From IMG/VR virus record IMGVR_UViG_3300049846_000236, positions 1 to 56,702 of that record: 56,702 nucleotides of DNA. One strand, written 5' to 3'. The position numbers were made by a program, and so were the translations under genes. Shown here in pieces: positions 6,790-55,682 of the stretch (position 1 is the stretch's first letter; every line of letters begins with the position of its first letter). This DNA comes from a virus. Lineage: Duplodnaviria; Caudoviricetes. Under the pieces are notes generated by a model. The model saw nothing but the letters and a program-made list of their open reading frames with translations. It was not told where the DNA came from and made no database searches.

Positions 6790-7548
6790 TTAGGCGGTGT
6801 ATTTCTTTCCACCCACAAAACAAATATACCCCTCATCAGTTTCTTTGATCGGAACTAGTTCAAGAAAATGTTGCCCACCTGAAATATATCCATAAAGAAA
6901 TCCCTGTTGCCAGTTCCTCTGATTGGAGTAATCTGCCTTCTCAACCTTCATCATGTGACCGATTTCATACCCTTCCAGGCGCTGACCGGTAATTTCGTAG
7001 GTCTTGAAGTAGTCCCCGAGCCTGTGCGAGTGGCCCCTGATCAGGGACACCCCCCAGGAGTCAATGTCTGCCTTCACGGATTCGCCGGAGTGCTTAGAAA
7101 CGGCTACGCCGTGGTGGACGTACATATCGTTAAACCTGTTGTAAGGAAGATCGCCATAGTAGTGAAACTCCACTCCATAGTCACTGTGCTTGTACAGTGT
7201 ATCAGGCGTGATCTGTCCTGCGAATTGCGGGGCATTGTCCTTGATAAACTTGTCGTGCCTAGTCCAGCCGTGGTTGCCGTCGAACAAATGGATATCTCCC
7301 TTAGGAGCAATACCTCTAATTGTTTCCAAGAACTCTCTCGTAGCCTTGGCACCGGCCTCATCCACGCTGATCATTTTCTCAGGCCCAACCGCCCAGCGAG
7401 AGGTACTGTCGGAGTCATCAAGGTCGCCCACAAGGTCAATCATGTGGGGCTTGAAGCCCTTTAGTACACTCAGCCAAAGGTTGACAGCCCTATCGTCCTG
7501 TAGTGGAAACTGAATGTCACTACAGGCCAGATATCTTAAATCCGACAT
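6790..7548 (-). CDS. calcineurin-like metallophosphoesterase
   Basis: SDIQFP, VGDLDD, GNHG, HHG and GHSH motifs. Confidence 0.85.
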   Translation of the reverse strand: MSDLRYLACSDIQFPLQDDRAVNLWLSVLKGFKPHMIDLVGDLDDSDSTSRWAVGPEKMISVDEAGAKATREFLETIRGIAPKGDIHLFDGNHGWTRHDKFIKDNAPQFAGQITPDTLYKHSDYGVEFHYYGDLPYNRFNDMYVHHGVAVSKHSGESVKADIDSWGVSLIRGHSHRLGDYFKTYEITGQRLEGYEIGHMMKVEKADYSNQRNWQQGFLYGYISGGQHFLELVPIKETDEGYICFVGGKKYTA

Positions 7549-52929: not shown

Positions 52930-53787
52930 ATGAAGAGGATCACACTGATTCTTAGCACCATGCTAGTAGCATTTCTTATGGGTGGTTCCTGGGCTTGGGC
53001 CGGGGAAACTCCTTCGTCCGATGACGACTGTACCACTGAAACTACCGGTTGGGTTCTTGAATCGCCCGGCCAGGATTGGACCCAGGTAGATCAGCGCACC
53101 GTTGTCGATGAGGAAGCCTGGGACGAGACTGTTGTTGATGTAGAAGCACAGCATTATTCTCTAAAAGGCAATTCTGGAATCGGAAAGGACGAAATTCCAG
53201 TGTTTCCTGCTGATTACTGGCAGGCCAACGCGCCATTAGAGCCACACTATCAGGGACACGGACTACCAGCATCGAATGTTGATGGCAGCGATTATATAGA
53301 AGGTCAGTCTGGCCTTCACTATACATCACAGGGCTCCGAGGGTCTTCGTGACTGGTTCTACTTCCAGGCGGAAGAGAGCCACGTTGTGCATCACGATGCT
53401 GTGACACACGAAGAGTTTGTATTTTCCAAGACAACGTGTGATAACCCGCACCCGCAGACTATTGCTTTGCGTGCTCACAAGTCAACGTGTGAGGGGAACT
53501 TCATGGCTACCATCACTATTACTACGCTTGACGGAAAGGTAATTTCTAAAGAGCGTAGCAAGTGGGTTAAGGTATCTAATCTCACCCATGCTCAGAAGGT
53601 TCAGTTGGAGTGTCTGACTCCGATCAAGCCTGAACCTACGCCAGACAAGCCTGAGGGGGCTGTGCCGGTCGCTGAGGAATTGCCCCACACCGGAGGCAAC
53701 CTCGCCCTCGCTGGAATTGCTGGGGCTCTCCTGGCAGCGGGAAGCGGCCTTGTGTGGTTTAGCCGCCGCCGCTTGACAGACGTGTGA
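52930..53787 (+). CDS. sortase-anchored (LPXTG) cell-surface protein
   Basis: Signal peptide MKRITLILS...AWA; Pro-rich linker; LPHTG, hydrophobic helix and RRR tail; start after GGAGGA. Confidence 0.85.
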   Translation: MKRITLILSTMLVAFLMGGSWAWAGETPSSDDDCTTETTGWVLESPGQDWTQVDQRTVVDEEAWDETVVDVEAQHYSLKGNSGIGKDEIPVFPADYWQANAPLEPHYQGHGLPASNVDGSDYIEGQSGLHYTSQGSEGLRDWFYFQAEESHVVHHDAVTHEEFVFSKTTCDNPHPQTIALRAHKSTCEGNFMATITITTLDGKVISKERSKWVKVSNLTHAQKVQLECLTPIKPEPTPDKPEGAVPVAEELPHTGGNLALAGIAGALLAAGSGLVWFSRRRLTDV

Positions 53788-53801
53788 GTAGATGGTAAGA
53801 T
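53773..53801 (+). promoter_or_regulatory. consensus sigmaA promoter of the tRNA/RNase P operon
   Basis: TTGACA-17-TAAGAT with extended TG. Confidence 0.8.
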
Positions 53802-53867: not shown

Positions 53868-53938
53868 GCCAGATTAGCATAGTGGCAGTGCGGTGCTCTT
53901 GTAAAGCATTGGCGACAGTTCGATTCTGTCATCTGGCT
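53868..53938 (+). tRNA. tRNA-Thr(UGU), no encoded CCA
   Basis: Acceptor GCCAGAT/ATCTGGC; anticodon arm GTGCT-CTTGTAA-AGCAT; T arm GACAG-TTCGATT-CTGTC. Confidence 0.92.
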
Positions 53939-53939
53939 C

Positions 53940-54031
53940 GGTCGTGTAACGTTATTGTTGGCTCCGTGCGGTGCCCGGTCTTGATCACTCTGGGTAAAAA
54001 GCCAAGGCGGGTTGAGTTCCCCCCACGATCT
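53940..54031 (+). ncRNA. tRNA-like RNA with expanded anticodon arm
   Basis: Acceptor GGTCGTG/CACGATC; TTGGCT/AGCCAA stem enclosing about 36 nt; T-like arm GCGGG-TTGAGTT-CCCCC; wedged between two tRNAs with 1-2 nt spacers. Confidence 0.55.
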
Positions 54032-54033
54032 AT

Positions 54034-54104
54034 GCCTCTTTAGTTTAATGGTAGAACATCTGTTTCGTAATCAGATAGTCGGAGTTCGATTCTCCGTCGA
54101 GGCT
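54034..54104 (+). tRNA. tRNA-Thr(CGU), no encoded CCA
   Basis: D arm GTTT-AATGGTA-GAAC; anticodon loop TT-CGT-AA; T arm CGGAG-TTCGATT-CTCCG; two mismatches at the base of the acceptor stem. Confidence 0.85.
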
Positions 54105-54171
54105 CGTGAATAAATATGACGGACTCACTCTGGCAGAAAAAATGTTAGCCGTGGCATTGGAGCCCGTAGAA

Positions 54172-54397
54172 GAACTTGTGACCGAGGCACCGCAGGAAAC
54201 TGAGGAAAGTCCGGACTCCTAAATGGAACCGTGTGGCCAGCCCTTAATCAGGCCCCACTAAGCCGAAACTTAAAAAGCAATGGTGCAGGGTAGGAGCAAC
54301 CTCAAGCAGATATGGCGTGCCATTTCGTTTACATATCGGGTAGAGGGCAAAGATGGATGGTGCCTCTCGACAGAATCCGGCTTATAGGTCACAATTC
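54172..54397 (+). ncRNA. rnpB: RNase P RNA (compact bacterial type-A catalytic domain, reduced S-domain)
   Basis: GAGGAAAGTCCGGACTCC (54202-) and ACAGAATCCGGCTTA (54370-) signatures. P1 TTGTGACC/GGTCACAA, P2 GAGGCACCG/TGGTGCCTC, P3 CAG-GAAA-CTG, P5 CTCCTA/TAGGAG, P6 AAATGG/CCATTT, P15 CCTC/GAGG with GGGTA, P16 GATATG/CATATC, and AGATGGAT before the P2 3' strand. Confidence 0.9.
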
Positions 54398-54422
54398 ATG
54401 TAACTACTAACAAGGGAAATAA

Positions 54423-55367
54423 ATGTTTACAACCATTTTGCTGGCTGTACTTATTCTTACAATTATCGTCGGTGTTATCGTTTGGGGTCGCATTGATGCT
54501 TCCCAATCGGCAGACCACGAACTTACAAAGAAAGTTGTTGGATGGTCTACTGTTGGTGTTGGTGTGCTGACAGCGGCTCTTCTTATTTTCTCGACACTTG
54601 TTATCGTTCCGACCCGCGAGGTGGGTATTAAGTTGACCTTCGCCAAGCCTGTCGGTACATTGTCGAATGGTCTGCACGTCAAGGCCCCCTGGCAGAGTGT
54701 TGAGCACATGGATGCTGCCATTCAGACGGATAACCACGTCAAGGACGGTGGAGAGACTTCTGACGGTTCGCATAGCCTTTCTTGTGTGACCACCCGCATC
54801 GCTCACCAGGCTGTCGCCTGCGTAGACGTTACTATCAGGTGGCGTATTATTGACGACCAGGCGGCGCAGTTGTTCCAGAACTACCGTACCTTCGGAAATG
54901 TTCGGGACTCTCTAGTAACTCGTGACCTTAATTCAGCAGTGAATGCCACTATGGAAACATATGACGTGCTTTCTGTTGATGAGAACGGTCAGGCTACCGC
55001 GCCTGAACTGTCAGAGGTCGCTAAGTCTGTCATGGAGGAAATGAACGCTCAGATTGGCGATCAGATCGAGGTTCTACAGGTTATTATCCCCGTTGTCCAC
55101 TTTGACGACGCCACTCAGAGTCGCGTCAATGCTCTACAGAGCCAGATTGCTCAGACCCGTATTGCAGAGCAGGCAGAGCGTACCGCTATTGCCCAGGCCA
55201 AGGCCAACAAGGAACTCGCCGCTTCGGTTTCTAACGATCCAAACGTGCTAGTGTCTAAGTGCCTTGATCTTCTGAACGAGTCTATTACTAAGGGGTATCC
55301 CCTTCCAGCCGGGTTCTCCTGCTGGGGTGCATCTAGTGCTATTGTGGTACCATCTGCTAAGTCATAA
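54423..55367 (+). CDS. SPFH/band 7 (prohibitin-like) membrane protein
   Basis: Two N-terminal TM helices, IVPTREVGIKLTFAKP...GLHVKAPWQSV, and a C-terminal AEQAE coiled coil. Confidence 0.88.
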   Translation: MFTTILLAVLILTIIVGVIVWGRIDASQSADHELTKKVVGWSTVGVGVLTAALLIFSTLVIVPTREVGIKLTFAKPVGTLSNGLHVKAPWQSVEHMDAAIQTDNHVKDGGETSDGSHSLSCVTTRIAHQAVACVDVTIRWRIIDDQAAQLFQNYRTFGNVRDSLVTRDLNSAVNATMETYDVLSVDENGQATAPELSEVAKSVMEEMNAQIGDQIEVLQVIIPVVHFDDATQSRVNALQSQIAQTRIAEQAERTAIAQAKANKELAASVSNDPNVLVSKCLDLLNESITKGYPLPAGFSCWGASSAIVVPSAKS

Positions 55368-55608: not shown

Positions 55609-55682
55609 GCCAGCGTAGTATAACGGTATTACACAAACTTGGTACGTTTGTGAAGGGAGTTCGACTCTCCCCGTTGGCTCCA
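55609..55682 (+). tRNA. tRNA-Thr(GGU) with encoded CCA
   Basis: Acceptor GCCAGCG/CGTTGGC-T-CCA; anticodon arm CAAAC-TTGGTAC-GTTTG; T arm GGGAG-TTCGACT-CTCCC. Confidence 0.93.

Follow-up and report, generated by a model that had tools for sequence, protein, structure and literature searches.

RNase P RNA counts as a ribozyme of cellular housekeeping. We found no published RNase P RNA encoded by a phage or virus in the full-text literature, where few subscription journals are covered and an earlier description is possible; two RNase P gene-finder papers nowhere contain the words 'phage', 'virus' or 'viral', and in the accessible part of one review phage RNAs appear as RNase P substrates only (PMC11143913). 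Two described systems come closest to the RNA reported here. The type T RNAs of the Thermoproteaceae have a normal catalytic domain and have lost most of the specificity domain (S-domain), with P10 either absent or ending in a small loop and P7-P9 surviving only as stubs; their core has a 3-bp P2, a shortened P15 and a 2-nt linker between P5 and P15, and they work with several archaeal proteins (PMC3579882, sections available). The other is a laboratory construct, Eco CP RPR, the E. coli type-A catalytic domain without S-domain and P18, which still cleaves substrates at lower efficiency, with and without protein, and the protein can act together with it; P18 links the two domains through P8 and contributes nothing once the S-domain is gone (PMC5839562, sections available).

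The stretch of DNA analysed here, the window, is a whole IMG/VR record of 56,702 bp, estimated to be 44% complete, with genes for a portal, head protease, capsid protein, ribonucleotide reductase, primase and DnaB-like helicase. Near its 3' end it carries a small RNase P RNA, which we compare with these systems and with a set of relatives.

The RNA and its domains

An Rfam covariance search with E-value reporting matched the bacterial class A RNase P family, RF00010, to 54174-54400 on the + strand at 80.3 bits (E 1.7e-24), over model positions 1-367 and so from end to end. The match is 227 nt long; the initial annotation of the locus had put the length at about 226 nt. The curated gathering cut-off for RF00010 is 100 bits, and the RNA is therefore absent from a standard Rfam scan: at gathering thresholds the window yields three tRNAs and nothing else. 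Four relatives (below) also miss the cut-off, at 71.7-84.9 bits. With scores of this order, phage RNase P RNA genes are overlooked by standard Rfam annotation. The elements of the RNA, and the evidence placing them, are as follows.

54174-54400, + strand: miniature RNase P RNA (Rfam RF00010 match)
54176-54394, + strand: ribozyme from P1 to P1, 219 nt (helix coordinates)
54176-54183 and 54185-54191, + strand: 5' strands of P1 and of P2 (covariation)
54193-54202, + strand: P3, a short hairpin with a GAAA loop (covariation)
54202-54214, + strand: CR-I / P4 5' strand, GAGGAAAGUCCGG (RF00010 alignment)
54216-54219 and 54223-54226, + strand: 5' strands of P5 and of P6 (AUGG) (covariation)
54228-54291, + strand: S-domain remnant, 64 nt (covariation)
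54228-54230 / 54289-54291, + strand: P7 of the remnant
54233-54258, + strand: hairpin a of the remnant, with conserved base GUGG/CCAC
54262-54265 / 54281-54284, + strand: stem of hairpin b of the remnant, its apical loop UUAAAAA lying within 54266-54280
54293-54346, + strand: P5 3' strand (54293-54296), J5/15 and P15-P16-P17 (RF00010 alignment and covariation)
54320-54323 and 54338-54343, + strand: P6 3' strand CCAU, and GGGUAG in L15
54347-54358, + strand: J15/2, GCAAAGAUGGAU, the P18 site, without a hairpin
54359-54394, + strand: span of the P2 3' strand, J2/4 with the P4 3' strand, and the P1 3' strand
54370-54384 and 54387-54394, + strand: J2/4 with the P4 3' strand, ACAGAAUCCGGCUUA, and the P1 3' strand

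Judged by its sequence, this is an RNase P RNA of the bacterial type-A kind with a complete catalytic domain. CR-I (GAGGAAAGUCCGG), GGAGCAA, CGGGUAG, AGAUGGAUGG and ACAGAAUCCGGCUUA all lie on the RF00010 consensus. Like type A, the RNA has P1-P5, a P4 pseudoknot formed by CR-I with CR-V (ACAGAA.CCGGCUUA), the P6 pseudoknot, a 7-bp P2, P15-P17, GGU in L15 and the J5/15 and J15/2 motifs. Unlike type A, it does without P8-P14, CR-II/CR-III and P18, its P3 in the window has only 3 bp, and it is a phage-encoded RNA of 227 nt, set within tRNA arrays, whose score is 80.3 as against 100 bits. In three defining respects the RNA thus falls short of type A: it scores under the threshold, and it lacks both P18 and the S-domain with its CR-II/CR-III.

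The P8, P9 and P10-P14 blocks of RF00010 (15 + 15 + 110 positions) correspond in the window to 20 + 18 + 26 nt, the 140 model positions of the P7-P14 specificity domain being reduced to 64 nt. The 24-position block of P18, the hairpin between P15 and P2, corresponds to 0 nt, here and in every row of the alignment of relatives described below, and the initial report that P18 is absent holds. From the P6 5' strand (54223-54226) to the P5 3' strand (54293-54296) there are 66 nt, one more than the ~65 first estimated. The CR-II and CR-III motifs, said to be unrecognizable here, were found together by regular expression at 0 of the 21 loci of the class, and the rare lone CR-II-like or CR-III-like matches fall outside the S-domain remnant. 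The RF00010 match and the alignment thus bear out the original description of a minimised bacterial-type RNase P RNA without a canonical S-domain or P18. The loss of P19 that accompanied it is uninformative, since the Rfam type-A model has an unpaired insert at that place and no helix.

The likeness to type T, as described in the sections available, is an analogy only: most of the S-domain is gone and P10 is truncated or missing. Unlike in type T, P2 in the window RNA has 7 bp and P15 has 4 bp, the linker is CAA, of 3 nt, and the phage RNA is viral, with a bacterial core (P6, P16/P17) and a different remnant that is conserved in sequence. Within the clan it matches the bacterial type A family best, and the archaeal core is lacking; the resemblance is one of convergence, not membership. 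The Eco CP RPR construct, as far as its available description goes, has no S-remnant, whereas the phage RNA keeps a conserved junction and apical loop.

Relatives and conservation of the fold

Public collections were scanned for two P4 strands lying 140-170 nt apart, a distance much exceeded in full-size type-A RNAs. The scan returned 3 viral contigs (115-203 kb), 69 metagenome loci and 34 loci in species-representative genomes. Of these 106 loci, 21 have an S-region like that of the window: 18 are metagenomic and 3 viral, L017 being a duplicate of L002, and none is one of the 34 species-representative loci. Altogether 20 homologues besides the window RNA make up a family of 21 distinct sequences, all of which, the window included, went into a covariance model, R1. 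Run over 100 of the 108 sources (leaving out L001, which is the window again, L017, and L102-L107, which have other S-regions), R1 gave 169.6-214.6 bits for the 21 family members and at most 95.8 bits for all else. A sample of 151 cellular genomes from the phylum to which a MAG titled Acidimicrobiia belongs yielded no family member: R1 scores there peaked at 71.7 bits, and the matches span ~320-350 nt, as full-size RNAs do. One of these genomes, flagged as unpublished, enters this negative count and no other result.

BLASTN against 50,697 phage records returned nothing for the window RNA region, the surrounding 16.7 kb or the L003 copy, and the downstream ORF (54423-55367) as query brought up no related viral loci. 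A first pattern in which GGAGCAA was required had no match, a loop-motif pattern gave nothing new, and a remnant-motif pattern found the same three viral contigs and no others. With the L070 copy as query, BLASTN hits fell in four phages of Microbacterium foliorum, ~192-195 kb in size, with identities of 86-93.5%; A3Wally, Big4 and Zooman are among these cultured carriers. The A3Wally copy, at record positions ~93852-94072, scores 209.7 bits with R1 and occupies an unannotated gap between tRNA genes ending at 93854 and starting at 94071, and in all four records a flanking tRNA is the only annotated feature under the match. An unannotated gene in cultured phages of M. foliorum, a harmless soil bacterium, brings biochemistry, knock-outs and structural work within reach now.

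The spacing pattern also picks up small cellular RNase P RNAs of similar size, likewise with 140-170 nt between the P4 strands. They differ from the phage family in scoring at most 96 bits with R1, and in that CR-II-like and CR-III-like motifs occur together at 26 of the 34 genome loci and at 27 of the 51 metagenome loci outside the family. The genome loci (L074-L107) with such motifs kept come from MAGs titled Shapirobacteria, Patescibacteria, Dojkabacteria and Elusimicrobia; several other hits in this set are artefacts of N runs in the assemblies. An AT-rich class of small RNAs (L013, L026, L036, L040, L058 and L066; also L006, L021, L027, L041, L044 and L053), with ~30-35% GC, RF00010-like (61.2 bits in L013) and situated between tRNA-Arg and tRNA-Gly, was on account of this position considered as a second phage class and then dropped: L013 carries 16S and 23S rRNA genes and is therefore read as cellular or organellar, and the likely source of the class is a reduced cellular genome or an organelle rather than a phage. 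Two short metagenome contigs with dense same-strand tRNA arrays, L047 (438-676, - strand) and L051 (842-1082, - strand), contain small RF00010-like RNAs of 52 and 69.7 bits whose S-regions are unlike that of the phage family; these are possibly additional phage-type minimal forms.

Compensatory changes can be read directly from plain MAFFT rows in P1, P2, P5, P6, P15, P16 and P17, the P6 pseudoknot for example appearing as AUGG/CCAU, GCAA/UUGC, CCAA/UUGG, AUGA/UCAU, AUCA/UGAU, AUAA/UUAU and ACAA/UUGU. In an alignment of the 21 sequences fitted to the model, with P4 and P6 added as pseudoknots (A3), 92.2% of 1155 cells hold standard pairs, against 72.1% after shuffling (0 of 500 shuffles reach the observed value), and 38 of the 56 pairs show changes on both sides; with the 3' partners slid by 1-3 columns as a control, 31-44% are paired. 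Taken helix by helix, P1, P2, P3, P5, P6, P15, P16 and P17 are paired in 84-100% of cells, with compensatory changes in each. The search pattern itself accounts for part of the invariance of P4, CR-I and CR-V within the family, an ascertainment effect; the P4 pseudoknot with CR-I and CR-V is present also in the A3Wally copy, which BLAST found, and motifs lying outside the pattern (GCAAC; CGGGU and GGC in L15/P15; AG..GAU in J15/2) occur in at least 20 of the 21 sequences. The initial annotation had named a decaying pseudogene without covariation as the case that would speak against it. Covariation extends across the 21 sequences, and indicates that the miniature RNA is under selection and evolutionarily maintained, not a decaying copy.

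The S-domain remnant is, on the same kind of evidence, a conserved three-way junction of P7, a variable hairpin a and a long hairpin b. P7 reads (G)CC/GG(C), with variants CUC/GAG, CCC/GGG and UCC/GGA. The base of hairpin a is paired in 21 of 21 sequences, as GUGG/CCAC, GUGG/UCAC, CUGG/CCAG, GUAG/CUAC or GCAG/CUGC, a register that is 100% paired with compensatory changes in 3 of its 4 pairs; the tip of the hairpin differs among members in length and in type of loop, and UAA or GAA follows. In 15 of the 21 sequences the lower stem of hairpin b, GCNC/GNGY (found as GCCC/GGGU, GCAC/GUGC, GCUC/GAGC, GCUC/GAGU, GCCG/UGGY and GCCA/UGGU), is fully formed, with four pairs at one fixed offset; shuffling partners between sequences gives a mean of 9.1, with 15 reached in 2 of 1000 shuffles. 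The lower stem is topped by an A-A mismatch, then an R-Y pair (G-U in 6 sequences, G-C in 4, A-U in 2, A-C in 8 and A-G in 1 at this position), a closing C-G pair (18/21) and the heptaloop YUAARAA. Jointly the three remnant helices are 85.7% paired, against 74.9% shuffled and 21-59% slid, with both-sided changes in 8 of 13 pairs. Minimum-free-energy folding of single sequences returns the three-way junction for some of them only, and the junction therefore rests on covariation.

This junction replaces the loose short hairpins in which the remnant was originally drawn and which, taken together, are 62.4% paired in the family. The first of them, GTG.GGCC/GGCC.CAC, does exist in the window, but its register is 63.6% paired among the relatives, which keep GUGG/CCAC; neither TAAG/CTTA (77% paired, with no compensatory change) nor GCA/TGC (40% paired) is retained.

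tRNA linkage and phage carriers

In the window the RNA is accompanied by three tRNA genes, preceded by a candidate promoter.

53773-53801, + strand: sigma-70-like promoter candidate, TTGACA-17-TAAGAT with TG (consensus match only)
53868-53939, + strand: tRNA-Thr(UGU) (Rfam, ARAGORN)
54034-54105, + strand: tRNA-Thr(CGU), ending 70 nt before ribozyme P1 (Rfam, ARAGORN)
55609-55682, + strand: tRNA-Thr(GGU), downstream, after ORF 54423-55367 (ARAGORN)

The promoter candidate lies upstream of the first tRNA, and a consensus scan found no terminator-like site on the + strand before 55800; the tRNAs, the ribozyme and the ORF may form one transcription unit. All three tRNA-Thr genes appear canonical. 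The initial annotation had alluded to a neighbouring tRNA-like RNA; in the inter-tRNA spacer (53940-54033, 94 nt) and the spacer before the ribozyme (54106-54173, 68 nt), ARAGORN and Rfam (E up to 10) found no tRNA or other RNA.

Across the 21 family loci, 164 tRNAs lie on the ribozyme strand and 0 on the opposite strand, with at least one tRNA at 19 loci and up to 29 at one; at 18 of the 20 homologue loci, as in the window, every tRNA is on the strand of the RNA. At 11 of the 21 loci a tRNA ends no more than 17 nt upstream of P1 or starts no more than 8 nt downstream, and in the A3Wally group tRNA-Arg genes flank the RNA on both sides with -1 and 3-6 nt to spare. With flanks this tight, the RNA would be freed by the ordinary processing of tRNA ends, to which RNase P contributes by cleaving the downstream tRNA. 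The window RNA is separated by 70 nt from the upstream tRNA, and the ORF, not a tRNA, comes next. RnpA (PF00825) was found in 0 of five phage records, among them a 96%-complete contig and the 194.7-kb genome of A3Wally, which is complete; each of these five phage records, the window's included, has exactly one RF00010 match.

The window capsid protein is ~68% identical to those of ~130-kb Streptomyces phages of the Stanwilliamsviridae. The Streptomyces phages Moab, Bmoc and Gilson have no counterpart of the RNA, the sole model match being one of 14.2 bits, and the ribozyme gene is therefore accessory. Among the other carriers a homologue of the window capsid protein was found only in the L002 phage (58% identity), with none in the L003, L004 and A3Wally records; the RNA is accordingly present in at least three capsid lineages.

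The window stretch is contained in DNA sequencing runs from freshwater and sediment, and in RNA runs only in small shares. One 197-nt metatranscriptome contig from sediment, belonging to a 94%-identical relative, covers 54188-54381 with 11 differences at a depth of 4.3; it could be a hint of expression, at most a weak one, DNA carry-over being possible. The remaining RNA contigs cover only the universally conserved core (54351-54388) and come from other organisms.

Genes annotated as RNA ligase and ADP-ribosyltransferase lie directly downstream of the tRNA/ribozyme array of A3Wally (94833-96663; L112 3986-5816), and two HNH endonuclease genes are scattered among its tRNAs. The 115-kb phage contig L002 has a GOLLD RNA (199.7 bits) and a tmRNA (93 bits), at 2438-2853 and 6827-7195, with 18 tRNAs, all in one orientation; contig L003 begins within a tmRNA. 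L023 and L049, the two family members with no tRNA nearby, both adjoin pilin-like genes with an N-terminal methylation motif, L023 having in addition an R2K ATP-grasp gene and L049 a gene with an ADP-ribosyltransferase domain. The metagenomic contig of L023 measures 885,359 bp, an unusual size for a carrier of the phage-type ribozyme.

Function and alternative readings

We think it probable that the RNA is an active phage-encoded ribozyme which, with host RnpA, processes the phage tRNA transcripts. The tailed phage of the window would then encode its own catalytically competent RNase P RNA, its S-domain pared down to a small three-way junction that the family conserves, and P18, which normally partners P8, removed alongside. 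The joint loss of S-domain and P18 matches the idleness of P18 in the E. coli RNA once the S-domain has gone, and the same E. coli work makes catalysis by such a core plausible (PMC5839562, sections available). The ribozyme RNA would share its transcripts with the phage tRNAs and, in many relatives, tRNA processing would excise it directly. With RnpA missing from the phages, its partner is probably the host protein, and the holoenzyme would cut the 5' leaders and spacers of polycistronic phage tRNA transcripts. The phage might gain extra RNase P capacity during infection, or independence from the host RNA subunit. Counting against this reading are the RF00010 score below the cut-off, the accessory nature of the gene and, in the window, the 70 nt to the upstream tRNA and the lack of a downstream tRNA flank; in addition, RNase P RNAs without an S-domain are poor enzymes in vitro (PMC5839562, sections available).

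The missing CR-II/CR-III elbow readers, the invariant new loop and the tmRNA genes within or next to the tRNA arrays of L002 and L003 would also suit a retargeted nuclease, whose new S-module shifts its substrates to host mRNAs or sRNAs, tRNA-like RNAs or tmRNA precursors. We judge this unlikely: the RNA is strictly on the same strand within ordinary tRNA arrays, the neighbouring tRNAs score as canonical, and no candidate for an alternative substrate was found.

A shade less likely again is a decoy, or sponge, that binds the host RNase P protein without useful catalysis, starving the host holoenzyme and helping to shut down host tRNA maturation. In the T. maritima holoenzyme structure RnpA reportedly contacts P2-P4, J2/4 and J18/2, and these presumed contact regions are intact in the phage RNA; the phages have no RnpA of their own, and loss of the S-domain would reduce activity (PMC5839562, sections available). 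A decoy, however, has no need of P6, P15-P17 or the CGGGUAG of L15, all of them conserved or covarying, and their conservation argues against a pure decoy; moreover, the phage tRNAs, as many as 29 per locus, themselves require RNase P. That the RNA is a functionless, decaying relic of a captured host rnpB is highly improbable in spite of its sub-threshold Rfam score, its large deletions and its absence from close cultured relatives of the window phage, since covariation argues against it, with compensatory changes in every helix across 21 sequences, the same deletions are common to phage lineages with unrelated capsid proteins, and the remnant has invariant positions.

An active phage RNase P RNA, the reading we prefer, would join tRNAs and tmRNA among the translation-related functions of large phages, and would show, as an experiment run by nature, how small a bacterial-type RNase P evolution will tolerate; the lack of CR-II/CR-III and P18 bears on how recognition is divided among S-domain, protein and core. 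A fuller version, which we offer tentatively, combines several elements in one claim: that there is a first virus-encoded family of RNase P ribozymes, in which the pair of interleaved T-loops of the bacterial S-domain has given way to a single small, invariant module, the hairpin with the A-A mismatch and the YUAARAA heptaloop, on a three-way junction, that this module newly reads the tRNA elbow or braces the core, and that members of the family in at least three unrelated capsid lineages, with host RnpA, mature their own tRNA arrays.

The YUAARAA loop may be a replacement specificity module; with a conserved junction and an invariant apical loop in place, a loss of specificity is therefore not established. 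T-loops share the pentad consensus U-N-N-R-A, with a U-A reverse-Hoogsteen pair. The apical loop contains UAARA in 18 of 21 sequences and UAAUGA in the other 3, a five-letter degenerate match that cannot establish a T-loop fold. A register of the simple T-loop kind, in which loop positions 1 and 5 pair, is at odds with the many members that have C at the first and/or G at the fifth position, and was rejected on that ground. In 21 of 21 sequences the purine at the fifth loop position is the same base as the purine of the R-Y pair two steps below (11 A/A and 10 G/G, spread over several sub-groups), which could reflect a base triple or shared ancestry.
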